DNA of 45,513 nucleotides, taken from positions 1-45,513 of the IMG/VR virus record IMGVR_UViG_3300026519_000004; one strand, 5' to 3'. The position numbers were made by a program, and so were the translations under genes. Below are positions 2,426 through 45,073 of this stretch, in pieces. Under the pieces are notes generated by a model. That model searched no databases. It saw nothing but the letters and a program-made list of their open reading frames with translations, and was not told the DNA's origin. Source of the stretch: a virus. Each line of letters begins with the position of its first letter. Position 1 is the first letter of the stretch.

Positions 2426-3895
2426 TTGTCAACCGTGGCCAACAAAATAGTCGAGCACCGATACCGCTGTAGAGGGGCTTGCAATGAACTTCTTCGGCGT
2501 TTTTTCGTCACGAGAGACCCGCCCGAGGAGGCACTGGTCGAAGGCCCGGCGGGTACCGGGAAGTCCCGGACGATCCTGACCTTGATCGACACGCTGTGCC
2601 GTAACCACCCCGGGATTAGATGCCTTGTAATGCGTGCCGTGCGTGTGGACATGAACGAGTCCACGCTGATGACCTTCGAGAACAAGGTGCTCCTGCCCGG
2701 CGATTGGTTGCTGCGCCGCAAACTCTCGCGCGAGCACCGTCGCAAGTATGTGTACGCCAACGGCTCTGAGATCGTGCTCAGCGGCATGGACCAGCCCAGC
2801 CGGTTGTTCTCAACCGAATACGACCTGATCTATATCAACGAAGCGACCGAACTGTCCGAGGCTGAGTACGAGAGCCTGTTCCGCTCGCTCCGAAACAATG
2901 TGCTGGAGATGGGCCAGCCGATGATAACGGACACGAACCCGGATGCGGCTTCTCACTGGCTCAACAGGCGACCAGAGCGGGCTGGCAGCGTCATGGAGCG
3001 GTTCCTGACCCGGCACACGGACAACCCCGCGTACTTCAACGACGACGGTTCTCCGACACACCTCGGGAGCGAGTACATGAAGCGGCTTGAGCGCCTGTCG
3101 GGTGTGCGCCGTGACCGCCTGTTCTTGGGCCTCTGGGTGACCGCCGAGGGTGCGATCTGGGAAACCTACGACCCGTCGATCCACCTCGTCAACGCCGGCG
3201 AGCGGACCAACACAAGGCCGTACGGGCGGTACCTGCCGGTGTTCGCTTGGACATTCGCGGCCTGCGACTTCGGCTTCCGCAATCCCGGCTGCATGGCTCT
3301 CTATGGCGTGACCGGAGACCGCCGCGTCTACCGAATCGCCGAGCACTACCGCGTAGAGAAGACGATCGACTGGTGGGCCGATCTCGCGGTCAGGTGGCAG
3401 CGAGATCACAATATCCGCCGCATCATCTGTGACCCAGCCAGACCAGACGACATCAGATACATCAACCGACAGATGGGCCGTGCCAAAAACCGCAAGGGGC
3501 AGGAAATCGCCGTGCCAGCCAATAACGACCATGCGGGCCTCGATGTAGTGAGACAGGCGTTCAAGGAGAACCAGTTATTCTTGGTGCGTGGTGGGCTCGT
3601 CAAACCAGACCCGCAACTCGTCGAGGACGCGCTCCCGCTCTGCACCGAGGACGAGATACCGTCGTATGTCTGGGCCGAGTTCAAGGACGGAAAGCCAGTC
3701 AAAGAGGAACCAGAGCAAGGGCTCGCGGATCATGGTTGCGATCAACTGCGATACGCCATGATGTTCGTACAGGGCCATGACCTTGACCCTGAACGAAGGT
3801 ATAGACATCGGGCCAACAGGTCGATATACTCGAAAGGAACTATGGGCGAATGGCTCGGAGATGATGAAGTTGAGCAAAAATGGAAGAAAGAGTGA
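2426..3895 (+). CDS. terL: Terminase large subunit
   Basis: Walker A 'GPAGTGKS', Walker B-like 'DLIYINEATE', and C-terminal nuclease-type acidic motifs ('ACDFGF', 'DHGCDQLRY'). 489 aa with a TTG start at 2426. Confidence 0.85.
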   Translation: MSTVANKIVEHRYRCRGACNELLRRFFVTRDPPEEALVEGPAGTGKSRTILTLIDTLCRNHPGIRCLVMRAVRVDMNESTLMTFENKVLLPGDWLLRRKLSREHRRKYVYANGSEIVLSGMDQPSRLFSTEYDLIYINEATELSEAEYESLFRSLRNNVLEMGQPMITDTNPDAASHWLNRRPERAGSVMERFLTRHTDNPAYFNDDGSPTHLGSEYMKRLERLSGVRRDRLFLGLWVTAEGAIWETYDPSIHLVNAGERTNTRPYGRYLPVFAWTFAACDFGFRNPGCMALYGVTGDRRVYRIAEHYRVEKTIDWWADLAVRWQRDHNIRRIICDPARPDDIRYINRQMGRAKNRKGQEIAVPANNDHAGLDVVRQAFKENQLFLVRGGLVKPDPQLVEDALPLCTEDEIPSYVWAEFKDGKPVKEEPEQGLADHGCDQLRYAMMFVQGHDLDPERRYRHRANRSIYSKGTMGEWLGDDEVEQKWKKE

Positions 3896-7302: not shown

Positions 7303-7418
7303 AACAACTGCCCGAGCACCAACTCCGCGACGCACTCGTGATATGGCGGGTCTTCGCACTCGTGGGGTGGGTGTTGTTTATTGTGGCGGTGGTGATTGAT
7401 GTGCGAAGGGCAATGTAA
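7299..7418 (+). CDS. 39-aa single-pass membrane micro-protein candidate (below the ORF-track size cut-off)
   Basis: GTG 7299 overlaps the upstream stop (GTGA). Its TAA overlaps the next ATG (TAATG). Hand translation gives MKQLPEHQLRDALVIWRVFALVGWVLFIVAVVIDVRRAM, which has one clear hydrophobic helix. Confidence 0.4.
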   Translation: MKQLPEHQLRDALVIWRVFALVGWVLFIVAVVIDVRRAM

Positions 7419-8494
7419 TGAGCAATATCCAATGGACAGACGAGACCTGGAACCCGGTGGTGGGGTGTACGCGTGCTTCGGCGGGTTGCGACCACTGCTA
7501 CGCCGTGACCATGTCGCATCGGCTTGAGGCGATGGGTGCAGAGAGTTACGCGGGCCTGACTGTGCTCAACGACAAGGGGGACCGGCACTTCAACGGCGAG
7601 GTGCGGTGCGTCGAGGAAGCAATCGACAAGCCGCGTCATTGGCGGAAGCCGAGGCGTGTGTTCGTCAACTCGATGTCCGACCTGTTCCACCCGAAGGTTC
7701 CGTTTGAGTTCATCGACCAGGTGTTTGCGGTGATGGCACTGTGCCCGCAACACGCCTTCCAGGTGTTGACGAAGCGGCCGGAGCGCATGGCGGAGTATCT
7801 AAGCAGGCCATATATGCCGGGCTACATCTGTGACGCTGCCATATTGAGGCACGGCAAATACTTACACTCGAAAGAATACAAGGAACACTTTAGTGGGACA
7901 TATGCGAAACTCACTCCAGCGGTGTGGCCACTCCCCAATGTCTGGCTCGGCACGAGCGTGGAGAACCAGGCTGCGGCGGATGAGCGGATTCCGCACCTGC
8001 TGCGGTGTCCGGCGGCAGTGCGGTTCCTGAGTTGCGAGCCGCTGCTTGGGCCGATTGATGTATTCGCGCCGATCCGAGATGTGAAACTGCGAGACGCTGA
8101 GCCGAACCCCGGCGGAGACGGCAACTACTTACATTGGGTCATCGTCGGCGGTGAGTCCGGGTCAAAGGCGCGTGTGTGCGATATTGGTTGGATTCGCTCG
8201 GTTGTCAGCCAATGCAAGACCGCGGCGGTGCCGTGCTTTGTCAAGCAACTTGGAAGCCGACCTGTGTTGAGTCGCGGGCCGAACAGGCGGTGTACATGGG
8301 GGGTCGGGCCAGTAAACGCGGATGGCGAACCAATGTGTTGGCGTTGCGGATGTCAAGATTTTGGGGCAGTAGATGGCGGATCACCAATGTGCAATGGCTG
8401 TAATGCACCGCATGACCGACTCAAAAACAAGAAGGGCGGCGACCCCGCCGAGTGGCCTGAGGACTTGCGGGTGCGCGAGATGCCGGATGGATAA
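7418..8494 (+). CDS. Gp37/Gp68 family protein (DUF5131)
   Basis: Hallmark N-terminus 'IQWTDETWNPVVGCTRASAGCDHCYA', 'WLGTSVENQ', 'FLSCEPLLGPI', and C-terminal 'EWPEDLRVREMP'. A Cys-rich stretch (CWRCGC...CNGC) lies before the C-terminus. Confidence 0.8.
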   Translation: MSNIQWTDETWNPVVGCTRASAGCDHCYAVTMSHRLEAMGAESYAGLTVLNDKGDRHFNGEVRCVEEAIDKPRHWRKPRRVFVNSMSDLFHPKVPFEFIDQVFAVMALCPQHAFQVLTKRPERMAEYLSRPYMPGYICDAAILRHGKYLHSKEYKEHFSGTYAKLTPAVWPLPNVWLGTSVENQAAADERIPHLLRCPAAVRFLSCEPLLGPIDVFAPIRDVKLRDAEPNPGGDGNYLHWVIVGGESGSKARVCDIGWIRSVVSQCKTAAVPCFVKQLGSRPVLSRGPNRRCTWGVGPVNADGEPMCWRCGCQDFGAVDGGSPMCNGCNAPHDRLKNKKGGDPAEWPEDLRVREMPDG

Positions 8495-10919: not shown

Positions 10920-11158
10920 TGCCGCTTGTGGTCAGGCCAAATACCGAAGAGTGGATGTGCATAGGTGGGGCTGTGTTTGTCAAGGTCGTGGTCGAGAAAG
11001 ATGGCAAGCCGAAGGTCATATTCGACGCCGCATCGGACATCCCGATATATCGCCAGCACACCGCCAGTCGTCGTGGTGTCAACATTGACTGGCCGCCGAG
11101 CATCCTGGAAGACCCCGAGCGAATCCCGCCGCACCTGAGAAACGGAGTATCCACATAA
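10919..11158 (+). CDS. CsrA/RsmA-like RNA-binding protein candidate
   Basis: 79 aa. 'MPLVVRPNTEEWMCIGGAVFVKVVVEKDGKPKVIFDAASDIPIYRQH' aligns by eye to CsrA ('[46 protein letters not shown]'). TAATG overlaps on both sides. Confidence 0.45.
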   Translation: MPLVVRPNTEEWMCIGGAVFVKVVVEKDGKPKVIFDAASDIPIYRQHTASRRGVNIDWPPSILEDPERIPPHLRNGVST

Positions 11159-13011
11159 TGCTTGACACCAGCGCTGACAATATGTTGCAGGAGTTCCAGG
11201 CAGGTGAGGCCGATCGGGACCAACACTTGCCGTACTACGAGCGGATGATCTCGGCCTATCACGGGGAGGGGTTCAAGTCGATTACGACGAGCGAACGGAT
11301 GCTGGCTAATCACTTCTTCGAGTACATCACCCTCATCAACCCACGCATCATCCAAGACAACCCGAAACTCCTGGTCTCGACTGACAGCACGGACGAGAAC
11401 GATAGGCTTGTGTCTAAGGCGCTCAAACACGCGGGCCAGAAGTGGATCGTCAATACGAAACTCGTGGATCATCTCGTGCGTGCAGCCATGGACTTTTCGT
11501 TCGCGTGGTGCGTGGCGTATGTCGAGCACCGCAAGGGCAAGAAAGATGAGTACGAGTACCGCAACCCCAAAGCCCCGGGGTGGCCTGTTGTCGAGCGAGT
11601 GCCTGTTCGACGGTTCTTTATGGACCCCGGTACGCTTTGCTTTGACGAGGCGCGATGGATGGGGCACCTGATCGTCCGCGACAAGGAAGACCTGCTCAAA
11701 GAGGCGAAAGAACACCCGGAGCGCGGGTGGAACGCCAGTGCGATTGAGGCGCTTGGTGACGACATCGGCATCGACCGCCTTAAAGAGCGCCGATCCCACG
11801 ATATTCCCACACGCAAGGAAGTTGTGTTGTTCCAGTTCTGGGTGCGCGACGCACAGCCGGACCCGGATTTGGGCATCGACGACGGGTTCTTCGGCGGGTT
11901 GTACACGATCGCCATTGATCGCCCACTGGACGGCAAGCAGGAGGACGAGAGGGGCGTTTCGGTCCGGGACCCAATCCCCTTCTGGGGCCCGCCAGAAGGC
12001 CCGTATGTGATGGGCGGCGCGTACATGGGGTCAACGGACGACCCGTGGCCCCTGAGTCCTCTCGCGGCCGTCTATTCGCAGGTCGAGGAGTTCAATGACC
12101 AAGTCACGGCAGCGGCCAACGCCAGCCGACGATACAAGCGGATTGTCTTCGTCGATGACGCGGACATCCAAACCGCCGAGGCGGTTATTGGCAGCCCAGA
12201 CGGGTATGTCGTGCCGATCCCGGGTCTCAAAGACGCAACAGGTGGAAGGAATATCATTGAAGTCGAGATCGGCGGGGTCAGCGAGTCGCAGATTCAGATG
12301 ATTCAATTGTGGCAGATGGTTCTTGAGCGAACATCTGGCATCGACTCAGCCCAGCGTGGTGAGGTCGAGGGGCGCGGAACAGCAACCGAGGTTGCGGTGG
12401 CGGACAAGGTTACAGACACGCGGATCAGCCGGCTCAAGATCGAGTTTCAGAAATACACGATCGGAGTGCTCACACGCGCCCTGTGGTACATCTATCACGA
12501 CGATGAGATTGAGATACCACTGAGCCCAGAGGCAGCACAGGAGATAGGCCTCGACATGCAGAATCCGGTGTTCAAGGGCGGCGACCCTGACCCGAGCAGT
12601 AAGGCCTCGTTCTGGAACCTCGACCTTTCGATTGAGACGATGAGCATGGAACGCACGACCGAGGCACTCAACAGTCGCCGCATTTTGCAGGCCACAAACC
12701 TCATTGCTTCGATGGCCCCGGTCATCCGCCAGTTCCCCGAGGTCGATTGGAAGTCGATTCTCAGCCGGATGGGAGACTCACTCAATATCCCCGACTTCGA
12801 CGAGGTCGTGGACTACGAGATGGCGTCGCAGTTGTTGGGCGTCGAGATGGCAGCGTCATCAAAGCCAGACGCGCCACAGGCGTCGTACTCCGGCGACTCT
12901 GGGGGCTCTGCGGCACCCACGCCCGCCCTACAGTCTGACCCGGCGATACAGCCATTTCAGAGCGTGATGGCCGAGAGTGCGGGTAGTCTTGGACAGGGGT
13001 CACGGCTATAG
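11158..13011 (+). CDS. Portal protein (putative)
   Basis: 617 aa, a portal-typical size, in the head module. Has a 'GRGTATE' segment and a low-complexity C-terminal tail. The call rests on position and composition. Confidence 0.55.
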   Translation: MLDTSADNMLQEFQAGEADRDQHLPYYERMISAYHGEGFKSITTSERMLANHFFEYITLINPRIIQDNPKLLVSTDSTDENDRLVSKALKHAGQKWIVNTKLVDHLVRAAMDFSFAWCVAYVEHRKGKKDEYEYRNPKAPGWPVVERVPVRRFFMDPGTLCFDEARWMGHLIVRDKEDLLKEAKEHPERGWNASAIEALGDDIGIDRLKERRSHDIPTRKEVVLFQFWVRDAQPDPDLGIDDGFFGGLYTIAIDRPLDGKQEDERGVSVRDPIPFWGPPEGPYVMGGAYMGSTDDPWPLSPLAAVYSQVEEFNDQVTAAANASRRYKRIVFVDDADIQTAEAVIGSPDGYVVPIPGLKDATGGRNIIEVEIGGVSESQIQMIQLWQMVLERTSGIDSAQRGEVEGRGTATEVAVADKVTDTRISRLKIEFQKYTIGVLTRALWYIYHDDEIEIPLSPEAAQEIGLDMQNPVFKGGDPDPSSKASFWNLDLSIETMSMERTTEALNSRRILQATNLIASMAPVIRQFPEVDWKSILSRMGDSLNIPDFDEVVDYEMASQLLGVEMAASSKPDAPQASYSGDSGGSAAPTPALQSDPAIQPFQSVMAESAGSLGQGSRL

Positions 13012-13018
13012 TTGGCCG

Positions 13019-13666
13019 ATGACCTACCTTGTTTCATTAGACGAATCAGTTGTGTTGGTTGGCAATGGCCCGAGCGCCACGGCCAAACTGGACGGCGACC
13101 TGATTGACTCGTTTGGTTGCGTCGTGCGGTTCAACCTGTTCGAGAGAGAGGGATACGAGCGGTTTGTCGGCCTACGCACAGATATTTGGGTCATCAACGG
13201 CAATGCCCAAGTCCATCGCCACCCAGTTCGGGCTGTGTCGATCAAGCGTGGCGTTGTCGTGGCCAACCCACATGTGTTTGGGCAGGGCGTTGATGGTGAC
13301 CCGTATTTCCATGTCTCCTCACGGCGGCAGGAGGCTATCCAGTGTGCCAAGAATCTGTGCTGCAAGACTCGTGGGCGTCTGGCCTTTGACATCGTGCCAG
13401 ATGAACTGTGGCACAGTGTGGCGATCCGGATGCAACAACTCGCCAAGACCAAACGCATTGGCCGACCGAGCACAGGGGCGATCATGGCCGAGTGGCTTGG
13501 CACGACCGACAGGCCGGTCCACCTCACTGGCTTCGACTGCTTTACCGGAGGCGTGAAAGAACACCACTACTTCCCGAGCACGATGCAGCCCGGGCACCAC
13601 CGGGAACAGTGGGAAAGTCTGTTTATCAACAGTCTCATCGACGAGGGAAGGGCAGTGATGTTATGA
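13019..13666 (+). CDS. Sialyltransferase-like glycosyltransferase (GT42 Cst-II-like / GT29-type sialyl motifs)
   Basis: Motifs occur in the correct order:
- L-like: 'VVLVGNGPSATAKLDGDLIDSFGCVVRFN...VGLRTD'
- S-like: 'RPSTGAIMAEWLGTTDRPVHLTGFD'
- III-like: 'HHYF'
- VS-like: 'HREQWE' (H-x4-E)
The start is ATG 13019; an upstream ATG at 12977 would overlap the portal gene. Confidence 0.55.
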   Translation: MTYLVSLDESVVLVGNGPSATAKLDGDLIDSFGCVVRFNLFEREGYERFVGLRTDIWVINGNAQVHRHPVRAVSIKRGVVVANPHVFGQGVDGDPYFHVSSRRQEAIQCAKNLCCKTRGRLAFDIVPDELWHSVAIRMQQLAKTKRIGRPSTGAIMAEWLGTTDRPVHLTGFDCFTGGVKEHHYFPSTMQPGHHREQWESLFINSLIDEGRAVML

Positions 13667-14043
13667 CCGAAGAACAGATATACCTGACAACAGAGCCGAT
13701 CATCCCGGACCGCAATGTTGTCGTGGCGACAAGGCCGGAAGAACTTGAAGTTCCGCAACAGGTGGATATGGAACACGCTTTATCGCCGACAAAACCATCA
13801 CCCGGCGGCCTAATCAGCATCCGCGTCCGGTCATGGGCGGTCAACCCGGAGACTGGCCTGACCCGCATCGAGCAACTTCTCGATGAAGCAAACAAGTTGG
13901 TTTTGTTGAAAATAATGGGTGGCAGCGCGCTCACGCAGCGCATCCGTCGCCTTGAACGCCTCAACGCACTCTGGACAGCCTTTGCTATCGTCGGATGGGT
14001 CTTGTATATCATCTCAGTCACACTTGCCTACAGCCTCTTGTGA
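13663..14043 (+). CDS. Hypothetical tail-anchored membrane protein (126 aa)
   Basis: ATGA overlap. C-terminal hydrophobic helix 'LWTAFAIVGWVLYIISVTLAYSLL'. Confidence 0.5.
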   Translation: MTEEQIYLTTEPIIPDRNVVVATRPEELEVPQQVDMEHALSPTKPSPGGLISIRVRSWAVNPETGLTRIEQLLDEANKLVLLKIMGGSALTQRIRRLERLNALWTAFAIVGWVLYIISVTLAYSLL

Positions 14044-14066: not shown

Positions 14067-14570
14067 ATGGAATACACACGCAAGGTAGATGACATGGTTC
14101 GCAGGTGCGCACGCATCATCCACGAGGTCAATAATGACTTCCGGGTGTCTATCGGCGAGGAACCGAAGCCCGTGAGCGCCGAGTGCATTAACACTTTGGC
14201 CACGGCGGTCAAGGCACAGTGGTTCAAGCCTGTTGGCCCACGGGAATCACATGAACGCTGGTTGGCCGCGAAAGAGGCTGCTGGATGGGAGTACGGCGAG
14301 GTCGAGGACGAGCAGGCTAAGGCCCACCCGTGCATCCTGTCGTACGACGCACTCCCGGAGCGTCAGCGCATCAAGGATATATTGTTCACGAGCATCGTCG
14401 GCGCGTTCTTCCCTCATGCCAAAGTTGAGCCCGAGCCACTTACGCCGGCCTGCATTGCAGTCTCCGGCGAGCCTCCGGCAGATCAGGACGAGGCGAATCG
14501 GGAGGCCGCGATCGAGGATGACATCGAGAGGGAGAACAATGAGCGAGAATCCCCCCCTGAAACTGAGTGA
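14067..14570 (+). CDS. RyR-domain protein
   Basis: 'HERWLAAKEAAGWEYGEVEDEQAKAHPCILSYDALPERQRIKD' fits the RyR repeat pattern (HE.W...K...GW.YG...D...K.HP.L.PY..LPE..K..D). Acidic C-terminal tail. ATG follows TGGAG. Confidence 0.6.
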   Translation: MEYTRKVDDMVRRCARIIHEVNNDFRVSIGEEPKPVSAECINTLATAVKAQWFKPVGPRESHERWLAAKEAAGWEYGEVEDEQAKAHPCILSYDALPERQRIKDILFTSIVGAFFPHAKVEPEPLTPACIAVSGEPPADQDEANREAAIEDDIERENNERESPPETE

Positions 14571-15009
14571 GGCGAGCAAGGAAAGCAACTCGTTCGATCA
14601 TGTCAACATCATGCGGTTCAAGTTGCCTTCCGATGCGTGCCCGCCGTTTGCCGCCGCTGGTGACCACTGGGCCGCGTACCTCGTGGGCATCCCGCTGGGG
14701 TGTGCCTCGGTGTACCGGATTCCCGGGGCACATAAAGACCGCAAGTTCGTGCTCCACTGGATCGAGGTCAAAGAGGAGACTCGGCGCAAGGGCATTGGCA
14801 TGATGCTCCTTGATGCGATCGACCTGTACTATGGCGACAGACTCCGTGTTTTGTTCACGAACGACGGAGGTAATGACCTTGCCATTGCGTTCGTGGCCAA
14901 ACACGGGGCACGGGATAACTGGACCTGTTGCGACGACGACGGGGAGCACTACCCGATCTTCGAGTGGTGTGCCAAGCGGAACAGACTGTTGTCGGGGGAG
15001 AAGGCATGA
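14539..15009 (+). CDS. GNAT-family N-acetyltransferase candidate
   Basis: 156 aa. Motif-A-like 'WIEVKEETRRKGIGMMLLDAI'. ATG 14539 follows GGGAGAA. Confidence 0.5.
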   Translation: MSENPPLKLSEASKESNSFDHVNIMRFKLPSDACPPFAAAGDHWAAYLVGIPLGCASVYRIPGAHKDRKFVLHWIEVKEETRRKGIGMMLLDAIDLYYGDRLRVLFTNDGGNDLAIAFVAKHGARDNWTCCDDDGEHYPIFEWCAKRNRLLSGEKA

Positions 15010-15410: not shown

Positions 15411-15806
15411 TTGCCAGATCGGGCCGTTTGTGGCAATATGAAGCAACTGAACTTTTATTTCTTTCGCGTCGTGTGGGGCCGAGGACAATCATCGCCTTGT
15501 CTCCATAGCCACCGATCTTCGGCGATAATCATCCGTACGCGGGCTGTGACCGAGTTGTACGCCCGGGATCATCCTCGACCGGGCAGCATCGGCAATGCCG
15601 GCCCTTGGTGGTCGTTTGTCAGGAGGCGGGCGTTCGTGCCGTATTTCATGCACGCCGCGCGGGCCCACAGAATCTATCACTATAAGCCATATTGGTTCGT
15701 GGCTGTTTCCGGTCCGGCGTGGCGCAGCCGATTCCATTGGTGGCGCAGTGAGGCTGGCGAGTGGGTTGAAACAAGAGAGCCAGATTACGACGAAGGGAAG
15801 TTATGA
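15411..15806 (+). CDS. Hypothetical basic, Trp/Arg-rich protein (131 aa). Coding status uncertain.
   Basis: TTG 15411 has GGAGA 6 nt upstream, and the stop forms an ATGA overlap with the GT32 gene. The composition is unusual and no family is recognised. Confidence 0.3.
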   Translation: MPDRAVCGNMKQLNFYFFRVVWGRGQSSPCLHSHRSSAIIIRTRAVTELYARDHPRPGSIGNAGPWWSFVRRRAFVPYFMHAARAHRIYHYKPYWFVAVSGPAWRSRFHWWRSEAGEWVETREPDYDEGKL

Positions 15807-16483
15807 CGCTGATTGTACATCAGGCGTGGTTCAACGAGGTACCACCACTTATTGCTGACTGTATGTCATCTTGGGACAAGTGGCCCGGCCTTGAAATGCG
15901 CCGGTATGGCGTTCAGGATGCGGTTGACATTCTTGGCATAGATGTTGTGGACCATTGCTTTACAATAAGGCTTGGGCCAAGAGCAGCGGCAGCATCATGG
16001 AGAAATAGGTACAGGCTCCTGTCTGATCTTTTCCGGTACAAACTCTTGGCCAGTGTCGGTGGCTTGTGGGCTGACTGTGATACAACAGCCATAAAAGACC
16101 CGCTCGCGCTTGGACTACAGAATGATGCTGGGCTCGTCCTGTTCAACCCGAAATCACACCATGGGAAAGGGTTGAAGACAGTGTGCAATGGGCTTATGTA
16201 CTCTGGACTCGGGCAGGAACCGAGGGTTATTGATAAAATATACGAAAAAGCCATGAGCAGGGCCATGGAGGCTGAGTGCGTCCCAAGGACCGTTGGGTGG
16301 CTTACAGGGCCGCATATGCTTATTGATAACTTTGCAAGGCTCGCATCAAGGATCATCAACCACCCATATGTATCAAAACCAGATGCAAGTTCCACGCCAG
16401 AAACCATATTGCATATACGGTACGGGCGGCACGATGACGCGAAAGAGGTAACTGGTCCGATTGGATGGGGTCCAAAAACATGA
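15803..16483 (+). CDS. GT32-type glycosyltransferase (DXD sugar-binding region, Gly_transf_sug-like)
   Basis: 'IVHQAWFNEVPP...SW' plus 'SDLFRYKLLASVGGLWADCD' match the recalled PF04488 pattern (IHQ.W...P; SD..RY..L...GG.Y.D.D). GC is lower than in the neighbours. Confidence 0.6.
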   Translation: MTLIVHQAWFNEVPPLIADCMSSWDKWPGLEMRRYGVQDAVDILGIDVVDHCFTIRLGPRAAAASWRNRYRLLSDLFRYKLLASVGGLWADCDTTAIKDPLALGLQNDAGLVLFNPKSHHGKGLKTVCNGLMYSGLGQEPRVIDKIYEKAMSRAMEAECVPRTVGWLTGPHMLIDNFARLASRIINHPYVSKPDASSTPETILHIRYGRHDDAKEVTGPIGWGPKT

Positions 16484-17121
16484 ATAAACTCGCCGTCATC
16501 TATGGGCTCCCAAGGGGGGGAACAAGTCTCGTCGCAGGCATCCTCCACCATGCCGGTTTCGACATGGGCGACATCCGGGGCCGCGTCAAGTCATACCCGA
16601 ACGGAGAGTCGTATCCGACCTACGAGGATCGCGGGTATCTCCCGCACATACACCAGCACACCAAGAACAAGAAGGTCAAGGAACTTGTACTAGAGGACGC
16701 GGTTGCGCTCCGGCGGTATGTCAACAGGCGACTGATCCGTGCGAATGGTCGTCCGGCTGGTGTGAAGATGCCGGGGATGCACCTGTGGAGCGCCGTTCCG
16801 GATTGGGTGAACATGCCGGTCGTGACCATCCGGGTTGTGCGACCGCTCGCCGATTCGGTCGCTTCGAGCGTGAGAAAGAACCCGGGGACACTAGCGGCGC
16901 AGTGGGAGTCCAATGGCCTTTCCATGCTCGATTCGATGGACAAGTTCGAGAAGCAGCGACCACCACTTGTGACCATTGACTTCTATGGTTTCCTCGACGG
17001 GATGAGAATGGAGCCAGATGGCACGATCTGCTCGTTGCTGAAACGACTTGAGCCAGAGACGGGCGTGCCGCTCGGCGGGTGGAACATCAAGGCGGCCAAA
17101 GAAAGCGTGGTGTTACGATGA
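16480..17121 (+). CDS. Sulfotransferase-family protein
   Basis: 5'-PSB-like loop 'IYGLPRGGTSLVAGIL' and 3'-PB-like 'VRPLADSVASS' (R-x3-D-x3-S). ATGA overlap. Confidence 0.55.
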   Translation: MNKLAVIYGLPRGGTSLVAGILHHAGFDMGDIRGRVKSYPNGESYPTYEDRGYLPHIHQHTKNKKVKELVLEDAVALRRYVNRRLIRANGRPAGVKMPGMHLWSAVPDWVNMPVVTIRVVRPLADSVASSVRKNPGTLAAQWESNGLSMLDSMDKFEKQRPPLVTIDFYGFLDGMRMEPDGTICSLLKRLEPETGVPLGGWNIKAAKESVVLR

Positions 17122-17669
17122 ATCTCCCACCCCGAAGCAAGAAACAAGACCACCTCTGGAGAACACAAGGGCTCGATCCGTACGCCACACACATGCCCGT
17201 GCTTGCCCATGCCTTCTCGAATGGTCGCCGTGACGACGGTGCGGCGATCTTTGAGTTTGGTTGTGGCTTCTATTCAACGCCGATGCTTGCTGGGTTGGCG
17301 AAGGCTCGCGGCATCCCGTTTTATTGCTATGAGTCAAACCCAGAGTGGGCTAATGCAGTCACGCGGGCCTGCCCGGCGGACATCGCACTTGTGATTGACC
17401 GGACGATGGAACTCGGCAAAGCCCGCGTGGGCATGGATGAGATTAGATCAATGGGTATCGACATCGAGGTGTTTATTGATAACGGGCCGACAATGGGGCA
17501 CCGAAAAAGACCGCTCGATCTCGCGGTTGAGTTTGGAGCGAAGTTGATTGTCGCTCACGACTCCAACAATCTTGCACGGCCATGGATCAGTGGTGCTATG
17601 GCCGTATTGGGAGCGCCAAAGGTGTACAGTGAACTCACCCCGGCGACCGCCGTGTGGGACTTCCGATGA
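17118..17669 (+). CDS. Class I SAM-dependent methyltransferase-like protein
   Basis: Motif I-like 'IFEFGCGFYSTPML', 'VFIDNGP' and 'KLIVAHD' resemble the O-methyltransferase family 3 layout. ATGA overlap. Confidence 0.45.
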   Translation: MNLPPRSKKQDHLWRTQGLDPYATHMPVLAHAFSNGRRDDGAAIFEFGCGFYSTPMLAGLAKARGIPFYCYESNPEWANAVTRACPADIALVIDRTMELGKARVGMDEIRSMGIDIEVFIDNGPTMGHRKRPLDLAVEFGAKLIVAHDSNNLARPWISGAMAVLGAPKVYSELTPATAVWDFR

Positions 17670-18500: not shown

Positions 18501-19475
<975 letters not shown>

Positions 19476-19614
19476 TCGCCTGACTTGCCAACAGGCCACT
19501 GGGGCGGTAGTATGCCCCGTATCCGTCCCGCCCGTGGAGCCTGCCAGCGTCCGGGCGTATTGACCGCAAGAGGCACCATCACACCGGCAAGAGGCCATAA
19601 CGGGAGTACCCGCC

Positions 19615-20802
19615 ATGGCCACCGCAGAAATCTTTGCCACATTGATGGAGTCCACCCCCTTCACCTATGTCAGTTCCCCCATGGACATCGTCAACGATGC
19701 CATCCGGCGGAACCAGTTGATGCCGCGATTCCTTCGGGGGCGAGGAAAGTCTGAGATTGTCCACACCGGCCCGAAGGTCAAGGACCGGATGTTGCTCGAT
19801 GTCACAAGCAACTTCCGCTCGTACGGGCCGCATGATGTCCACAACTACTCAAATCCCCAGACGGGCGATGAGTGGGAGAATGGATGGGCCCGTTATACCG
19901 AGGAGATGGTGTGGGAGGAAGGTGAAATCCTCCACAACTTTGTGCCCGGGCTGAGCCGCGATGCGGTCAAGACGGTGCTCAAGGATGTCAAGAACCAGAA
20001 GGAGCAGCGCCTTATCACCTCGATCGTCGAGGGCCTTGATGACCTGCTTTGGGCCCAGCCTAATGTCGCGACGATGGAGAATCCGGCGAAGGGTCAGACC
20101 GCTGATGCCATGAGCATCCCGGCGCTCATCAACGAGTTCACTAATGGCCTGTACCCGGCAATCTCCGGCGTGACCGCCGCGTGGACGACCAAGCAGAACA
20201 TTGACCCGACGACCAAGCCGGCGTGGGACAATCAGCGCATCTCGTACAACCCAAACACGCTGGCCAGTTCGACACTTGGCCTTTTTGCGTCGTTCCGCAA
20301 GATGCGCCGCCGCCTGCGCTTCAAGCCCCCGACGATCGGACAGGAGCACTTTGAGGCCGACAATTACACGCGGATGTTTCTCGCGTGCTCGGAAGACGGA
20401 GTAACTCAGTACGAGAATATGTTGCAGGAGGTTGGTGACAAACTTCGTGGCAATGTGATGAATCCGCGAGACTCCTCGTATGGTGAGGTGACCTTCCACG
20501 GTCACATGCTGGAGGAAGTCGAGGCCCTGCGCGATGCCGAGTTGTATCTCAACGCGGCTGGCAATGGCCTTGTTGGTGAGTCAGCGGCGACCGTCGCTAA
20601 TGCCGGTCCCCGGTATTACTGGCTCAATACCTATTATTTGATGCTGTTGATGCACAAGGACAAGTGGCTTGAGAAGCGCAAGCCGAAAGAGCCGGACCGC
20701 CAGATCGAAGTGTGGGTCCAGCCGGTCGTCATGTGGTTGCAGATTTGTGCATCCTCACTCCGCCGGCAGGGCATCGTATATCCAGTCGTCGCGTCCGCGT
20801 GA
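19615..20802 (+). CDS. Major capsid protein (putative)
   Basis: 395 aa. GGGAG RBS 8 nt upstream. Positioned between the scaffold-like and decoration-like genes. Preceded by a 139-nt leader. Confidence 0.55.
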   Translation: MATAEIFATLMESTPFTYVSSPMDIVNDAIRRNQLMPRFLRGRGKSEIVHTGPKVKDRMLLDVTSNFRSYGPHDVHNYSNPQTGDEWENGWARYTEEMVWEEGEILHNFVPGLSRDAVKTVLKDVKNQKEQRLITSIVEGLDDLLWAQPNVATMENPAKGQTADAMSIPALINEFTNGLYPAISGVTAAWTTKQNIDPTTKPAWDNQRISYNPNTLASSTLGLFASFRKMRRRLRFKPPTIGQEHFEADNYTRMFLACSEDGVTQYENMLQEVGDKLRGNVMNPRDSSYGEVTFHGHMLEEVEALRDAELYLNAAGNGLVGESAATVANAGPRYYWLNTYYLMLLMHKDKWLEKRKPKEPDRQIEVWVQPVVMWLQICASSLRRQGIVYPVVASA

Positions 20803-22147: not shown

Positions 22148-23023
22148 ATGGAATACAACTCGCTCATCTACATCGGCGAACTTTCGCACAAACCTTCTCT
22201 CGCGGTGGCCCAGCGGTACGCCTCGGTCTATGGGTTGCGGCTCCGCACGATCCCCCGCAATGAGTTCTTGTACAACTGTGATGGCCTGCTCAGGGACGCG
22301 GCGTTCGCCGTGATATGGAATGGCGAGCAGGGGAACACCGGAGCGTGCGCGGACTATTGCCGGGCTAAGCGGGTTCCCCATTGCTTCCTCGAACTCGGGC
22401 TCCTCCCCCAGCACAAGACCTACCTGATCGACAGACGCGGCTTCTGTGGCCGCTCGTCGCTGTGTGGCGACCTTGGGTGGGTCACGCCCACTGACATGGC
22501 CCAGATGCGCCGCGAGCGTGAGGCGCTGCTTAGACGCCACAGGCGAGCACCAGACGGATCGGTGCTCGTGCCGCTCCAAGTGCCCAACGACACACAAGTC
22601 TTCTACCACTGGTCTGGGCGGACCATGCAAGACCTTGTCCAGCAAGTCGAGTCGATGTATCCGGGCCGCGAAATCGTGTTTCGACCGCACCCAAAGATCA
22701 CAGACAACTCTCGCCTGATCCTCGGCCCACGATCCAGCCTCCGGGCCGAGGGTTTGTTTCTCGACCAAGCAGCCCGTGCTTCTGTGGTCGTCGGGGTCAC
22801 CTCGACCTGTCTGTACGAGGCTTCCCTGCTCGGCGTTCCGACAGTTGCTCTCGGTGACCACCCACTCCGGGCCCACCGGGACCACGAACGGGTGCTGGCG
22901 GGGCTCTTGGCCCACCGATTCGACTCCAATGGTTCCCCATGGAACATCATGGAGCGGTTCTCTGTCAGGCCACTGGGCGCTCTACCGCTTTCGGAAGGGG
23001 GAAATGTTGCCGAAGCCGGTTGA
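22148..23023 (+). CDS. Capsule_synth (KpsS/KpsC-like) glycosyltransferase candidate
   Basis: 'VLVPLQVPNDTQV', 'IVFRPHPK' and 'VVGVTSTCLYEASLLGVPTVALG' fit the recalled KpsS/KpsC beta-Kdo-transferase family pattern (LQV.DS...; K.HP; S..GfEAll.G.pV). ATG 22148 follows GGAGG. Confidence 0.55.
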   Translation: MEYNSLIYIGELSHKPSLAVAQRYASVYGLRLRTIPRNEFLYNCDGLLRDAAFAVIWNGEQGNTGACADYCRAKRVPHCFLELGLLPQHKTYLIDRRGFCGRSSLCGDLGWVTPTDMAQMRREREALLRRHRRAPDGSVLVPLQVPNDTQVFYHWSGRTMQDLVQQVESMYPGREIVFRPHPKITDNSRLILGPRSSLRAEGLFLDQAARASVVVGVTSTCLYEASLLGVPTVALGDHPLRAHRDHERVLAGLLAHRFDSNGSPWNIMERFSVRPLGALPLSEGGNVAEAG

Positions 23024-26000
23024 TATCCCGTTCCCATTCAAGGGCCTTGCCGAGACCTTCGCACTGGACAGGCAGGTTCCCAACACGAGCATGGCGCTGC
23101 GCAATGTCCGTGGCCGCGATCCCAAGACGACACGCATCCGGGGTGCTCAGCGATCTGGTATCACCCAGTATGTCAACGAGCAGGTGTTCCCGGACTTTGC
23201 TCAGGAACTTGTACAGGTCACGATCGACACAAACCTCACGACCTATACAGTCCGTGATACATCCTCTGGTCCATCGGTCGAATGGAAGAAAACAGTCAAT
23301 GGCAAGGACGCGGTCGCCGATATTGCTGTGACGCGCGGCGGGGATGTCTTCGCCGCGACGCCGCCGGACAAGTTGAGTAAATACACCTCGGAGGGATCAT
23401 GGCTGTTCACAGAGCAAGTGCCGACATCGAGCGAGGACGAATATATCAGTGCGGTTGTTGTGGATACACTGGACAATGTGTTTGTGGCCGTAAGGACCGG
23501 GGGGGCGACCCGGTACGGCGGGCGCGTGATTCGATACGAACAATCGGACGATGGTTTGGTCGAGACATGGAACCTCGACATGAACGATGCTCAGCCAGTG
23601 GACCTTGCATTGCAGGGAGACAGGCTTGTGGTCCTGACTCGAAAGTCAGGTGGCGGGGAGATCGTCGTCTACAACTCGCTGGGCGCATCGTCGCCCAATG
23701 TCTTGTGGGACCGGTCAGTCCCTTCCAAGGGCGTTGGGGTCGATCTGAATGACGACGGCGATGTCTTTGCAGTCTTCGACTCGGATGACACACGGGACGA
23801 TGTCACGCCCGGCGACTGCAACAACCCGTCTATCGCGTGGAACCCGAACGACCTGCCGACGAGCACGCTCTGGTCGTGGTATGACGCCCAGCAGATGACC
23901 GGAATAACCGACCGAGAAATCCTCGATGTCATACCGGATTGGTCTGGGAATCAAAGAGACTTGTACGCCGCACCAGCAGGGTACGCGCCTGTCATTGAGT
24001 TCCCGGGGTCATGGGGCGTGCGATTCGCCAAGAACTCATTTTGTATCTACGACGGGTTCCGATTTGAGGCCGAGCGCCGCGACGGCAAGGTAAGTGGCGT
24101 GGCCTCTGGCTTCGGCACGAACAGCGCGTTCCCGATCCATACGAATGAGCCGTTTGCGGTCGTCATGCTCATCAAGAGTCCGGGGTCTGGTGAGGGCGAG
24201 GCCAAGTTCTTTGAGACCGGTGGTAAGCCGTATACAACCATGTGGCAGTCGCAGAACGGACGCGGCTTGTCGCTCGGGTTCTCTGACCCAGGACCATCCG
24301 ACACCGACAGCACCGACCCGAATCAGACGCGGCAGGGCAATATCCTCAACGCCGGCAACGGGCGGCTTCGCGCCCCAGATGTCTGTGTTGTCTCGTTCGG
24401 ATACTCCCCAACCTCACATGATGATGGTGTCGCTGGTTACTCGTTTTTGCGTGTCAACGGCGAGACCATCGACGCCTTTACCGTTGATGATGTCCGTGTT
24501 GATACCGGTGTTCAGTTTGGTTATTCGGTGTACGCCGGGGAGGCGACAAACTGGGGGCACTTTAAGGGCGACCTGATCGAGATGGTGGTCATTAGTGGTG
24601 CGTATGACCTGCCGACGCTCGCCTCACCGTTCGGGGCTGCCGGGCCGGACGCCGAGCCCTCGCCGATCACGCCGCCAAGGTATATCTGGCCTGCAAATGG
24701 GGCGAGTCCGAACGGGAACCCTGCCGAGTACACGGATGGCACAGAATACATCACCAAGTTGGAGGGTTATCTCGCGCATCGGTATGGACAACAGGACAAA
24801 CTGGCGACCGGGCACGCATACCGGGCGGCCCCCCCGGGGCATGGGGCGAGTGGCGCGAGCCCGAACTCGACCGATGACACCTCTGAGGCCCGAAAACTCG
24901 ACTCGACCAGTGAGATTCTTGCCAAGTTCGGGTCCGGCTCTGGCTCCCTCCGTTGGGCGCGGGTTGGGAACGGCTATGGCTATGGCGTGCGCGTCCGAGA
25001 CGAGTGGGTGTACACGATTGGTCGAGGGTTCTTGGTGGCCAGCCCCGACAACTCGATCACGCTGCGCCGAATCAAAGACGAGGGGTTCACCGCCGACGAC
25101 TCTGGTGCTGGAACCTATGAACTCGCCGAGCAGCAGCCCAAGTTGTCAAACGACTCGAAGGATGACATCCTGCCAATCCGGCTCGATGTAGATTCTGACC
25201 ACAACCTGTATGTGCCCGTCAAGTCCGGGGCTCCGGGCGGAGACGACTTCTCGATCAGAAAGATCACCAGTGCGGGGACGACCGAGTGGGAGTTCAAGTG
25301 CCCGATCACAGGCGCGTCTCCCAATGTCTCATATATGTGGGGGCGTGTGTGTTCGCTCGACACGATCAGCGACATCCCTGAGCGCGAATCCATTGGAGAG
25401 CCCGAGTTTGTATACCTCGGTATCGACCATGACACCCCGGGCAACGAAGAGCCAACACTGTTCAAGTTGCGGCTCGTCGATGCGAGTGTCCGCCTTGGGG
25501 CACCAAGAGAGAAGCGGATCATTGGTCTTGGGGGGGGAGTGTTCAAGAAGATTGTTCGCGGAGCCGCAACCGAGGTAACGGCGATCACAAACAATGGCGC
25601 TACGCCGAGTGCTATTGCCCGGGTTGCCCGTGGTGCGGTGCTCAACGAAAATGCGTTCTTTGTCGATGGGCGCGATCAGTGGTACTACGACCCGGACACT
25701 GACACGATGGAGGCGTGGTCGGCAACGAGTGGTGGAACGCTTCCGAAGCGACCAAGACTTATAGAGGCGTGGCGTGGCCGGCTCGTGCTTGCAAGAACCG
25801 AGGGCAAGGGCGGCAATATCTATATGAGCAAGGTCGGAGACCCGTTCGATTGGGACTTATATCCGCCGGTCATCAGTGCCGTGCAAGCCGTGAGTCTCGA
25901 AGTGGCCTCTGCCGGTCAGGTACCCGACATCGTCAACGGCCTCATCCCGTACAACGACGACCTGCTCATCATCCTGTGTGACCACTCGATCTATCGCCTG

Positions 26001-26975
26001 ACCGGTGACCCGATGGCGAACGGAAAACTCGACTCGATCACGAACTCGATCGGCGGCGCGTTCGGGCGTGCGTGGTGCATGGACGACATTGGGATCATCT
26101 ACTTCTTTGGTTCGCGCGGCGGCCTGTACCGCATGGTGCCCGGGCGGTGGATGCCGGAACTCGTGAGCGACAACCGGTTGGATCGTCGTCTCGACTCGAT
26201 CGACCTCGACTTTTATACCGTCCGCATGGCGTGGAATGACAAGGACAAAACAGTCCACATGTTTGTCGTTCCGATCGACACAGTTGGGGCCTCGCCGTCC
26301 GGGCCGACAGCCTCTCCCCCGGCATCGCCCGGAGCGAGCCCCACTGCGTCACCTGTGGCCAGCCCGACGCCGGCTAGCCCATCTGGAGGGCCGGTGAATC
26401 CCGGTGGCGACTTTGGGGGCGCGTTCGATCCAGACCTCCATATCGCAGCAAGCACGACCGCTGCCGACCCATTGACTCACTGGGTGTGGGAAAGGCCGAC
26501 GGACGGGCTCTTTGAGGACAAGTTTGCACTCTCCTCGCTCGACCCGACGGCGATCCTCGTGGTCGATGGCGACGAGCCGGACGACCGGGTGCTGTTGATG
26601 GGTTGTGGCGATGGATACCTCCGGGCATGGGACCGGGACGCCACGAGCGACGATGGGAGCGCGATCGACGCATTTGTCGTCATCGGACCGCTGCAACCAC
26701 AGGAGGCGCACGCCCGGGTCCGGTGGAATGACTGGGAGATCACTCTTAGCCCCGGCCAGAACGGGGCCACGGTCGAACTGTTTGCTTCTGAAAACGCCGA
26801 GAATGAGGGCCCGGTCTTCAAGACCTTCACGGTTGCCGCCGGGCGGAACTCGGGGCTCAAGCATAGAGTAAAGGCCTCATATGTGTGGCTCAAGATCGGG
26901 AACAGCACTGTGAACGAGCGGTTTGCGATCGAGGAGATTGCGGCTCAGTGGCAGTTGGCCGGGAGGGCAAGATGA
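23004..26975 (+). CDS. Large virion structural protein, tail tubular B/nozzle-like, with repeat (propeller-like) and lectin-like regions and a PAST-rich linker
   Basis: 1323 aa from ATG 23004, with GGAAGGGGG upstream. The N-terminus 'FKGLAETFALDRQVPNTSMALRNVRG' resembles the starts of podovirus nozzle proteins. Recurrent '...DVFA...' blade-like segments. The track ORF starting at 22776 would overlap the previous gene by 248 nt. Confidence 0.45.
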   Translation: MLPKPVDIPFPFKGLAETFALDRQVPNTSMALRNVRGRDPKTTRIRGAQRSGITQYVNEQVFPDFAQELVQVTIDTNLTTYTVRDTSSGPSVEWKKTVNGKDAVADIAVTRGGDVFAATPPDKLSKYTSEGSWLFTEQVPTSSEDEYISAVVVDTLDNVFVAVRTGGATRYGGRVIRYEQSDDGLVETWNLDMNDAQPVDLALQGDRLVVLTRKSGGGEIVVYNSLGASSPNVLWDRSVPSKGVGVDLNDDGDVFAVFDSDDTRDDVTPGDCNNPSIAWNPNDLPTSTLWSWYDAQQMTGITDREILDVIPDWSGNQRDLYAAPAGYAPVIEFPGSWGVRFAKNSFCIYDGFRFEAERRDGKVSGVASGFGTNSAFPIHTNEPFAVVMLIKSPGSGEGEAKFFETGGKPYTTMWQSQNGRGLSLGFSDPGPSDTDSTDPNQTRQGNILNAGNGRLRAPDVCVVSFGYSPTSHDDGVAGYSFLRVNGETIDAFTVDDVRVDTGVQFGYSVYAGEATNWGHFKGDLIEMVVISGAYDLPTLASPFGAAGPDAEPSPITPPRYIWPANGASPNGNPAEYTDGTEYITKLEGYLAHRYGQQDKLATGHAYRAAPPGHGASGASPNSTDDTSEARKLDSTSEILAKFGSGSGSLRWARVGNGYGYGVRVRDEWVYTIGRGFLVASPDNSITLRRIKDEGFTADDSGAGTYELAEQQPKLSNDSKDDILPIRLDVDSDHNLYVPVKSGAPGGDDFSIRKITSAGTTEWEFKCPITGASPNVSYMWGRVCSLDTISDIPERESIGEPEFVYLGIDHDTPGNEEPTLFKLRLVDASVRLGAPREKRIIGLGGGVFKKIVRGAATEVTAITNNGATPSAIARVARGAVLNENAFFVDGRDQWYYDPDTDTMEAWSATSGGTLPKRPRLIEAWRGRLVLARTEGKGGNIYMSKVGDPFDWDLYPPVISAVQAVSLEVASAGQVPDIVNGLIPYNDDLLIILCDHSIYRLTGDPMANGKLDSITNSIGGAFGRAWCMDDIGIIYFFGSRGGLYRMVPGRWMPELVSDNRLDRRLDSIDLDFYTVRMAWNDKDKTVHMFVVPIDTVGASPSGPTASPPASPGASPTASPVASPTPASPSGGPVNPGGDFGGAFDPDLHIAASTTAADPLTHWVWERPTDGLFEDKFALSSLDPTAILVVDGDEPDDRVLLMGCGDGYLRAWDRDATSDDGSAIDAFVVIGPLQPQEAHARVRWNDWEITLSPGQNGATVELFASENAENEGPVFKTFTVAAGRNSGLKHRVKASYVWLKIGNSTVNERFAIEEIAAQWQLAGRAR

Positions 26976-44560: not shown

Positions 44561-45073
44561 ATGTTCGGCACACCTAAAAAAGGCGGTAAGTGCTATTACG
44601 ACCCGGAAGTAGGTAAAAAGATCGTCGAGCGTGTGTGTCGGGGTGAGAGCATCAAGAGCATTTGCAAGGGCGAGGGGATGCCCAACTGCGGGATTGTCTG
44701 GCGGTGGCGCATGATGGGCCGCGAGCCAGACTGTGACCCACAGGTTGCCGAGTTCACGCGACAGATGGACATCGCCCTTGAGATGCGGGCTGATGTCCTG
44801 ATCGACGAGTGCCAAGACATCGCCGACGACGACTCGAACGACACGCTCACCAACCAGTTTGGCGAGGCTAGTAACCCTGCTGCGGTCTCACGGGCCAAGT
44901 TGCGCATCGACACACGCAAAGCCGTGGCTGCCCTGTACGCGCGCGAGAGGTATGGCAGGAGCAACAGGAGCGACGCCGAGGCTGATAGTGGTGTCGAGGA
45001 GCATCGTCTGGTGATTGAGGTGGACCCTACTCCACTTGCGCAGAAACAGGCGGAAGATCGGGAAGGGGCTTGA
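44561..45073 (+). CDS. terS: Terminase small subunit
   Basis: 'YDPEVGKKIVERVCRGESIKSICKGEGMP...VWRW', 'DECQDIADDDSND' and 'SRAKLRIDTRKA' match the recalled pattern of BPP-1-type small terminases (Y.PE...I...GESL..IC...MP; RSRLRVDTRKW). Confidence 0.75.
   Translation: MFGTPKKGGKCYYDPEVGKKIVERVCRGESIKSICKGEGMPNCGIVWRWRMMGREPDCDPQVAEFTRQMDIALEMRADVLIDECQDIADDDSNDTLTNQFGEASNPAAVSRAKLRIDTRKAVAALYARERYGRSNRSDAEADSGVEEHRLVIEVDPTPLAQKQAEDREGA

Follow-up and report, generated by a model that had tools for sequence, protein, structure and literature searches.

GT29 is the glycosyltransferase (GT) family to which all animal sialyltransferases belong. A member of this family is encoded in a window of 45,513 nucleotides of viral DNA (positions 1 to 45,513 of IMG/VR record IMGVR_UViG_3300026519_000004), by an open reading frame (ORF) on the + strand that begins with an ATG at 13019 and closes with a TGA ending at 13666. 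The two ends of the window overlap by exactly 127 bp (1-127 = 45387-45513), and it is therefore a complete circular or circularly permuted phage genome of ~45,386 bp. The 215-aa product (P0001) has been called in identical form on a 45,527-bp ENA contig and on other public assemblies. It appears to be a soluble GT29-like glycosyltransferase, as judged by its match to PF00777, its predicted fold and the mapping of its residues.

The four sialylmotifs lie in this ORF in the order L, S, III and VS, and each aligns with its counterpart in the mammalian sialyltransferase ST3Gal-I. Motif L (VVLVGNGPSATAKLDGDLIDSFGCVVRFN) occupies residues 11-39, motif S (RPSTGAIMAEWL...LTGFD) residues 149-173, motif III (HHYF) residues 182-185 and motif VS (HREQWE, an H-x4-E pattern) residues 194-199. 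A preliminary description of the locus had reported these motifs in this order, and every string that it quoted is present at the residues given. Taken together with the family match, the four motifs lie far beyond chance. No stretch resembling a transmembrane segment or a signal was detected in the protein, the peak 19-residue Kyte-Doolittle hydropathy being 0.83.

PF00777 (Glyco_transf_29) is the single Pfam family reported for the ORF. With E=5.6e-12, the match scores 46.1 bits where the gathering cut-off is 23, and it reaches from position 58 to position 271 of the 272-position profile; the protein has no match in PHROGs or NCBIfam. A search of the PDB sequences with the protein alone returned a best match of only E=0.9, and matches there required a profile, A1, built from the protein and seven relatives. 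With this profile, pig ST3Gal-I (2WNB) is found at E=7e-16, ST6GalNAc2 at 9e-13, and ST6Gal1 and ST8SiaIII each at ~1e-9. An AlphaFold2 model based on an 81-sequence alignment has a pLDDT of 87.1 and a pTM of 0.87. When this model was compared with the PDB by Foldseek, 30 matches were returned at E<=1e-3, all of them to GT29 sialyltransferases of mammals, with E-values from 3e-8 to 2e-5 and query-normalised TM scores of 0.52-0.67; beyond them lay noise. In BFVD, a collection of predicted viral structures, the matches are to giant-virus GT29 proteins, to herpesvirus and poxvirus sialyltransferases and to an entry named 'Glycosyl transferase family 29 [uncultured Caudovirales phage]'. By sequence comparison and structure prediction, the product of 13019-13666 is a member of the GT29 family with a predicted GT-A variant fold.

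The preliminary description had spoken more broadly of a transferase of the GT29/GT42 fold and had named searches against both families. The GT29 part is upheld by PF00777, by the profile and by the fold; the GT42 part finds little support. The idea that the protein is instead a Cst-II-like GT42 enzyme, or a Maf-like nonulosonic-acid transferase, draws on an N-terminal GNGPS...RFN that recalls the N-terminus of Cst-II and on a weak match of profile A1 to Cst-II (2DRJ, E=0.008), which is partial, covering Cst-II residues 4-173 and stopping before the catalytic His. In addition, marginal BFVD matches to MptE-like/DUF115 phage proteins (E ~2e-3) show a distant fold relation. Against these stand the Pfam result, in which PF00777 appears alone and neither PF06002 (GT42) nor PF01973 (Maf/DUF115) is found even at E<=10, and the Foldseek result, in which all 30 significant PDB matches are GT29 and no GT42 chain is among them. 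Motifs III and VS are also both there, aligned to H301/H302 and H319-E324 of 2WNB; in GT42 the sialylmotifs are only weakly conserved (Petit et al., PMC5811610). Membership of GT42 or Maf in place of GT29 is thus highly improbable.

Individual residues were mapped by hidden Markov model (HMM) alignment with 2WNB, in which the pig ST3Gal-I numbering equals the chain index plus 45. N16 and N39 of the phage protein correspond to N150 and N173 of ST3Gal-I, S151-T152-G153 to S271-T272-G273, G171 to G291, H182-H183-Y184 to H301-H302-Y303, H194 to H319 and E199 to E324. From the ST3Gal-I structures (Rao et al. 2009) we take it that these residues line the site for cytidine monophosphate (CMP), that H302 touches the phosphate and that H319 is the general base. 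The catalytic His of motif VS and the phosphate-contacting His of motif III would then be placed equivalently in the phage protein, as far as the alignment indicates. Across the 318 GT29-like domains aligned here, conservation of the mapped positions is 88-96%: N16 is kept in 291, R37 in 304, N39 in 293, G153 in 305, H183 in 291, Y184 in 287, H194 in 281 and E199 in 292.

This pattern bears on the suggestion that the ORF is a decayed, non-catalytic relic which keeps the fold and has lost the activity. That there are just two close homologues might be read in this way, though nothing specific points to decay. Every CMP-binding and catalytic position is intact and matches the family consensus, an orthologue of 53% identity retains both the motifs and the genomic position, and the structure prediction is confident. 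A relic is therefore very unlikely.

Two traits of eukaryotic GT29, the type II topology and the Cys pair that joins motifs L and S, are absent from the phage protein. Opposite the cysteines that animal GT29 enzymes have in motifs L and S, the phage protein has other residues in the 2WNB alignment. The lack of these traits sets a prokaryotic and viral branch apart and does not exclude membership of GT29, with which it is still compatible.

A search with the protein alone against 5.8 billion proteins found just eight relatives, the closest of which, at 53% identity, lies on a contig binned into a 'Bacteroidetes' metagenome-assembled genome (MAG). A profile search gave 81 proteins, many of them fused to an N-terminal PF13578 methyltransferase domain, and HMMER over 1.84 billion representatives gave 8,379 matches at E<=1e-3, 3,039 at 1e-10 and 176 at 1e-30. 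The top 150 of these representatives are mostly stand-alone proteins of 170-215 aa. The earlier remark that this would be a very compact member of its fold is thus true by comparison with the catalytic domains of animal enzymes, beside which 215 aa is short, but not within the prokaryotic and viral branch, where it is a normal length. The fused methyltransferases belong to PF13578 (Methyltransf_24), for which one source gives the label O-methyltransferase YrrM, and an HMM of 52 N-terminal extensions found no such domain in a six-frame search of the window.

In 50,697 GenBank phage records, tblastn with the window protein and two other members as queries recovered one uncultured 484-kb phage only, and at that sensitivity no homologue in a cultured phage. 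IMG/VR, searched with alignment A1 in a two-pattern scan, yielded 91 viral loci, which reduce to 61 non-redundant groups. Genome assemblies were scanned with a tighter alignment, A3, and there Verrucomicrobiota supply 7 of the 12 relatives and Planctomycetota 2, which hints at a host from the Planctomycetota–Verrucomicrobiota–Chlamydiota (PVC) group for this clade. One GT29 relative lies in a prophage-like region of a 253-kb Verrucomicrobiaceae MAG contig. With those genome loci the window shares just the GT29 gene, a 183-aa protein and part of a giant ORF, the last two of which are described below. Some contigs assigned to MAGs are themselves phage-derived. L006 (JAQVQJ010000001.1, 'Clostridia bacterium' MAG) represents a T4-like phage with gp13, gp23, gp25 and the gp44 clamp loader, and L001 (RFIJ01000502.1, 'Bacteroidetes bacterium' MAG) is a phage genome or fragment that is syntenic with the window; MAG taxonomy is therefore not to be taken as that of the host.

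UniProt already labels some uncultured-phage proteins GT29, and the annotation 'alpha-2,3-/2,8-sialyltransferase' is given in one phage paper for Azotobacter phage TayeBlu. The literature search found no description of a phage GT29 and no biochemically characterised prokaryotic GT29. The loci collected here show GT29 proteins of a compact, soluble branch to be common among uncultured phages, often beside genes for the activation of nonulosonic acids or of 3-deoxy-D-manno-octulosonate (Kdo).

To describe these neighbourhoods in IMG/VR, ORFs were called, those within 5 kb were clustered and the cluster representatives were annotated. The commonest non-structural neighbours of phage GT29 in the 61 groups are a CTP_transf_3 cytidylyltransferase, found within ~6 kb in 16 groups and with nine copies <=170 bp from GT29, a Gmd-like 4,6-dehydratase (15 groups) and NeuB (8 groups). 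The cytidylyltransferases are nearest to PseF or, in L038, to KdsB, and in that locus the KdsB-like gene abuts GT29. The T4-like phage L006 has the order gp23, methyltransferase, GT2/methyltransferase, GT29, cytidylyltransferase, an unassigned ORF and a further GT29. Six tandem GT29 paralogues accompany a cytidylyltransferase in L060:9462-16650 (IMG/VR), and the 484-kb uncultured phage LR756508.1 (L104) carries five GT29 ORFs, NeuB, two 4,6-dehydratases and a cytidylyltransferase between 305 and 345 kb. Because synthetase and NeuB genes adjoin GT29 in relatives, guilt by association supports the view that the donor of the branch would be a keto-acid sugar of 8 or 9 carbons, activated with CMP. 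An assignment of the donor by nearest relative was rejected, since beyond the syntenic L001 all relatives are only 25-32% identical. The earlier proposal of a CMP-nonulosonic-type transferase finds support, at the level of sequence and model, in the family HMM, the profile, the fold, the residue mapping and the neighbourhoods of relatives.

In the window itself, HMMs for cytidylyltransferase, NeuB and dehydratase, made from the phage neighbours, found nothing in six frames (best E=0.7), and Pfam scans of about 50 window ORFs gave no CMP-sugar synthetase. As the genome is complete and contains neither a synthase nor a cytidylyltransferase, the donor is presumably drawn from the host pool. The preliminary description had likewise seen no CMP-sugar synthetase and had expected reliance on a host pool of nonulosonic acids, and both statements hold for the complete genome. 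It had added that this need constrains what the host can be. The need stands, but the constraint is weak because Kdo is a candidate donor, as the KdsB-like neighbour in L038 suggests, and CMP-Kdo is made by bacteria containing lipopolysaccharide (LPS) generally.

The GT29 gene opens a cassette that lies between portal and capsid genes. The portal gene (11158..13011, + strand), assigned by a weak match to PF23899 SU10_portal (E=3.5e-4) and by an orthologue in L001, ends 7 nt ahead of the GT29 start codon. Downstream, the cassette is bounded by scaffold and capsid genes (18501..20802), which encode a scaffold-like acidic protein (18501-19475, + strand) and a probable major capsid protein (19615-20802, + strand), each recognised by its sequence character and an orthologue in L001. 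A cement protein (PF09956) and an SU10 adaptor (PF24175) follow the capsid-like gene. L001, the only syntenic relative, has nine proteins in common with the window. It keeps the genes for GT29, for a GT32-like protein and for a protein with a PRGGTS motif between portal and capsid, and is without an insert that in the window comprises transmembrane, RyR and GNAT genes.

The first gene of this insert (13663..14043, + strand) has an ATG that overlaps the GT29 stop codon (ATGA); it encodes 126 aa, with one hydrophobic helix, at the C-terminus (hydropathy 2.04 at residue 108). The protein has no match in Pfam or PHROGs and is a possible membrane tether. It is followed by a RyR-domain protein of 167 aa (14067..14570, + strand; PF02026 E=4.6e-10, PHROG 5154 E=5e-26) and a GNAT acetyltransferase of 156 aa (14539..15009, + strand; PF00583 E=6e-6, 26.9 bits, cut-off 20.7). 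These two genes (14067-15009) are inserted between those for GT29 and the GT32-like protein, an insertion that L001 lacks, and two further unassigned ORFs lie between the GNAT and GT32-like genes. The GT32-like (DXD) glycosyltransferase itself (15803..16483, + strand, 226 aa, motif SDLFRYKLLASVGGLWADCD) falls just under the Pfam cut-offs, with 22.4 bits for PF04488 and 19.9 bits for PF05704. It is 40% identical to L001:6425-7102 and has a weak match (E=0.5) to Legionella SetA in its DXD region. Three possible counterparts of this gene, a GT8-like neighbour of 226 aa in L009, a neighbour of 215 aa in L005 and the middle domain of a protein in L094, were rejected, as none matched.

The next gene (16480..17121, + strand) encodes a protein of 213-218 aa with a GLPRGGTS loop, an R126-x3-D-x3-S134 pattern and an orthologue in L001. 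Sulfotransfer_3 is found in two orthologues at E=0.1 and 0.021. An AlphaFold2 model of the window protein has a pLDDT of 75.6; in Foldseek it is closest to the sulfotransferases Teg12, Stf0 and Stf1, at marginal E-values (~1e-3) and with NMP kinases mixed in among these matches. Among 5.8 billion proteins it has two homologues. Its modelled structure and motifs point to a probable phage-encoded sulfotransferase dependent on 3'-phosphoadenosine 5'-phosphosulfate (PAPS).

The last of these genes (17118..17669, + strand) encodes the 183-aa protein, which has no Pfam match. It is homologous (BLASTP E=4e-10 against L094:31-1635) to the N-terminal domain of a 535-aa Chthoniobacteraceae MAG protein, whose C-terminus is PF00777 and whose middle region has an LDLDT (DXD-like) motif; Pfam recognises neither the N-terminal nor the middle domain. 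Because a homologous domain is fused to GT29 in L094, this Rosetta-stone arrangement links the 183-aa protein functionally with GT29, as a prediction from domain fusion. An E-x-G-C-G motif in the protein gives it a putative resemblance to class-I methyltransferases. A scan of 10.8-19.7 kb for promoters and terminators found no intergenic terminator, and its single sigma-70-like match lies at 19485-19513, just upstream of the capsid-like gene; the signals sought, and this consensus, may not be those of the host.

Elsewhere in the genome, annotation identifies the large and small terminase subunits, TerL (2426-3895) and TerS (44561-45073), and a RecT/PDDEXK recombination pair. A DUF5131 (phage Gp37/Gp68) protein is encoded at 7418-8494 (E=1.7e-85), and a window scan placed a DUF932 protein at 391-1449 on the - strand. 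The left ~3 kb of the window has a reversed GC skew and contains the sole clear minus-strand gene found. Two giant ORFs, of 1,399 aa (22776-26975) and 2,974 aa (29075-37999), have no Pfam match. Within the larger, GC content drops from ~0.60 to 0.50 over 31.5-35 kb; kin of its product occur in the GT29-carrying phage loci L011 and L012 (2,790 aa) and in a Verrucomicrobiota MAG (L097). No tRNAs were found in the window, and megablast of its DNA against GenBank phages gave no match.

It is fairly likely that the GT29 protein is a soluble, cytoplasmic, inverting transferase which uses a host CMP-ulosonic acid, with H194 as its base, and which acts late in infection with its neighbours to tailor an acidic glycan. 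By analogy with pig ST3Gal-I, it would be a metal-independent GT-A variant enzyme that transfers, with inversion, from a CMP-activated 2-keto-3-deoxy acid sugar. The candidates for this donor are a nonulosonic acid, such as pseudaminic (Pse), legionaminic (Leg) or neuraminic (Neu) acid, or the 8-carbon Kdo, which the host pool would supply. The CMP moiety would be gripped by N16 and N39 of motif L and by S151-T152-G153 of motif S, the phosphate would be contacted by H183 of motif III, and the acceptor hydroxyl would be deprotonated by the general base H194 of motif VS (H-x4-E199). Because the gene lies 7 nt after the portal gene and upstream of scaffold and capsid, it is probably expressed late. 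Its product would probably partner the GT32-like hexosyltransferase, the probable sulfotransferase and the 183-aa protein, and together they might build or tailor a short acidic glycan.

Several points weigh against this reconstruction. The window protein is just 25-32% identical to the relatives that lie beside synthetase genes, so that the donor class has been transferred across a long evolutionary distance, and the nearest relatives, L001 and L005, are without a synthetase nearby. The neighbouring cytidylyltransferases and NeuB all score below NCBIfam equivalog cut-offs. The placement of H194 relative to the donor rests on sequence alignment, not on 3-D geometry, and the literature yielded no activity data for any prokaryotic or phage GT29. 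As to the acceptor, the sequence gives no clue to it, the probable capsid protein is without a Ser/Thr-rich tail, and the transmembrane protein whose gene overlaps the GT29 stop codon fits a membrane-associated target (a host glycan) no less well than a virion one.

The acceptor is tentatively placed, at somewhat less than an even chance, on a phage virion protein, which would be a form of self-decoration analogous to that of mycobacteriophages and giant viruses. There is a slight lean to this acceptor because several phages, unrelated to each other, have the gene among their structural genes, and because the cassettes of relatives, in which pathway and transferase genes are combined, recall self-glycosylation in those viruses. 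It is also quite possible, though somewhat less probable, that the same chemistry is directed at a host envelope glycan such as the LPS core, the O-antigen or the capsule. The phage would in that case modify or cap the receptor it uses itself, adding an acidic sugar together with hexose, sulfate or acetyl groups, and so block superinfection or spare progeny from loss on infected cells and debris. The 126-aa protein with its C-terminal transmembrane helix could tether the enzyme to the inner membrane, the site of LPS and capsular polysaccharide assembly, and the presence of GNAT and a probable sulfotransferase in the cassette is typical of glycan tailoring. Kdo/LPS synthesis genes in cyanophages are usually read as serving host-surface modification (PMC12801897), and the relative in the Verrucomicrobiaceae contig lies in a prophage-like region. 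Against this acceptor, scans of the window found no integrase or lysogeny module. The gene is inside the late structural block, the transmembrane protein is not kept in the syntenic L001, and no flippase, polymerase or lipid-carrier enzyme is encoded. The probability that remains falls to an acceptor other than a virion protein or a host envelope glycan.

Phage DNA carrying hypermodified bases has also to be considered as a target. Phage glycosyltransferases acting on 5hmC- and 5hmU-DNA are diverse, according to Pyle et al. 2024 as cited in PMC12619734, and many GT29 relatives are fused to methyltransferase domains. Those domains are of the PF13578 type, labelled O-methyltransferase by one source, and in relatives the genes nearby serve sugar biosynthesis (NeuB, Gmd, cytidylyltransferase). 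Scans of the window found no TET/5mYOX protein and no dCMP or dUMP hydroxymethylase, and the literature search found no GT29 that acts on DNA. Glycosylation of DNA by this enzyme is therefore scarcely likely.

For this phage, a standard Pfam scan already annotates the GT29 gene correctly, and the result is otherwise ordinary. The wider result is a large phage-borne GT29 branch, frequently beside NeuB and PseF/KdsB-like genes and here in the company of a probable sulfotransferase. The branch provides a testable handle on the sugar that is transferred. It bears on whether phages decorate their own particles or host surfaces with sialic-acid-like sugars, and on the movement of GT29 genes among bacteria, viruses and eukaryotes. 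A bolder and rather doubtful generalisation is that tailed phages of several kinds (SU10-like, including this one, T4-like and huge) use self-contained cassettes to add CMP-derived acidic sugars as caps to the proteins of their own virions. With the same low expectation, the sugars would be of Pse, Leg, Neu or Kdo type, further modified in this phage with hexose and sulfate. If true, this would amount to 'sialylated' phage particles, and the compact branch would constitute a large mobile reservoir of GT29 genes, with relevance to the proposal that eukaryotic sialyltransferases came from alpha-proteobacteria (mitochondria). A cytoplasmic GT29 of 215 aa without the Cys pair would also be an attractive minimal scaffold for bacterial glyco-engineering.

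Among known systems, the mammalian GT29 enzymes of known structure (pig ST3Gal-I, 2WML/2WNB; human ST8SiaIII, 5BO6-9; ST6GalNAc2, 6APJ; ST6Gal1, 4JS1/6QVS) share with the phage protein the Pfam family and the four sialylmotifs. Their CMP-contacting Asn, Ser and Gly residues and two His residues align with those of the phage protein, and the predicted fold matches, at ~16-19% identity. Unlike them, the phage protein has no signal anchor or stem and is without the stretch of ~95 residues found ahead of motif L in the crystallised construct. It also lacks the conserved disulfide between motifs L and S and has a shorter linker between these motifs. It is predicted to be cytoplasmic, whereas the mammalian enzymes are Golgi-lumenal, and sialic acid is not known to be its donor.

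The first report of bacterial GT29 proteins that have the four sialylmotifs complete dates from 2018 and comprised 23 sequences, 19 of them alpha-proteobacterial and the others gamma- and epsilon-proteobacterial (PMC5811610). Like the phage protein, they have no transmembrane domain and no conserved Cys pair. That report makes no mention of phages, whereas the GT29 gene described here lies on a complete phage genome and has its cellular-genome kin mostly in Verrucomicrobiota and Planctomycetota MAGs. Plants have GT29 proteins whose proposed donor is CMP-Kdo in place of sialic acid, such as RCKT1, a putative CMP-Kdo transferase of rhamnogalacturonan II by genetic evidence (PMC11288761). This recalls the KdsB-like gene that adjoins GT29 in some phages, although the plant proteins are Golgi type II membrane proteins, unlike the phage protein.

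The GT42 enzymes Cst-II and Cst-I have in common with the phage protein the GNGPS...RxN start, and a related GT-A variant fold and a donor of the CMP-nonulosonic-acid type would be shared as well. The general base of Cst-II is a His. The phage protein nevertheless differs in having no PF06002 match, just the partial match to 2DRJ at E=0.008 and no significant Foldseek match to Cst-II. Maf transferases (DUF115/MptE-like) belong to a different family and are larger, multi-domain proteins with no sequence-level match to the phage protein, the distant fold relation in BFVD notwithstanding. They move CMP-Pse, CMP-Leg, CMP-Neu5Ac or CMP-Kdo in the cytoplasm onto Ser/Thr of a structural protein (PMC11339370), and as such provide a functional model for the modification of virion proteins. 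Among viruses, the sialyltransferases of ChHV5, poxviruses and ChoanoV1 are true GT29 fold matches in BFVD, under database names of the host sialyltransferase type. In mycobacteriophages, glycosyltransferases modify subunits of the capsid and of the tail tube (Freeman et al. 2023, cited in PMC12619734 and PMC12801897 and summarised in the former). Virus-encoded glycosyltransferases are common to these viruses and to the window phage.

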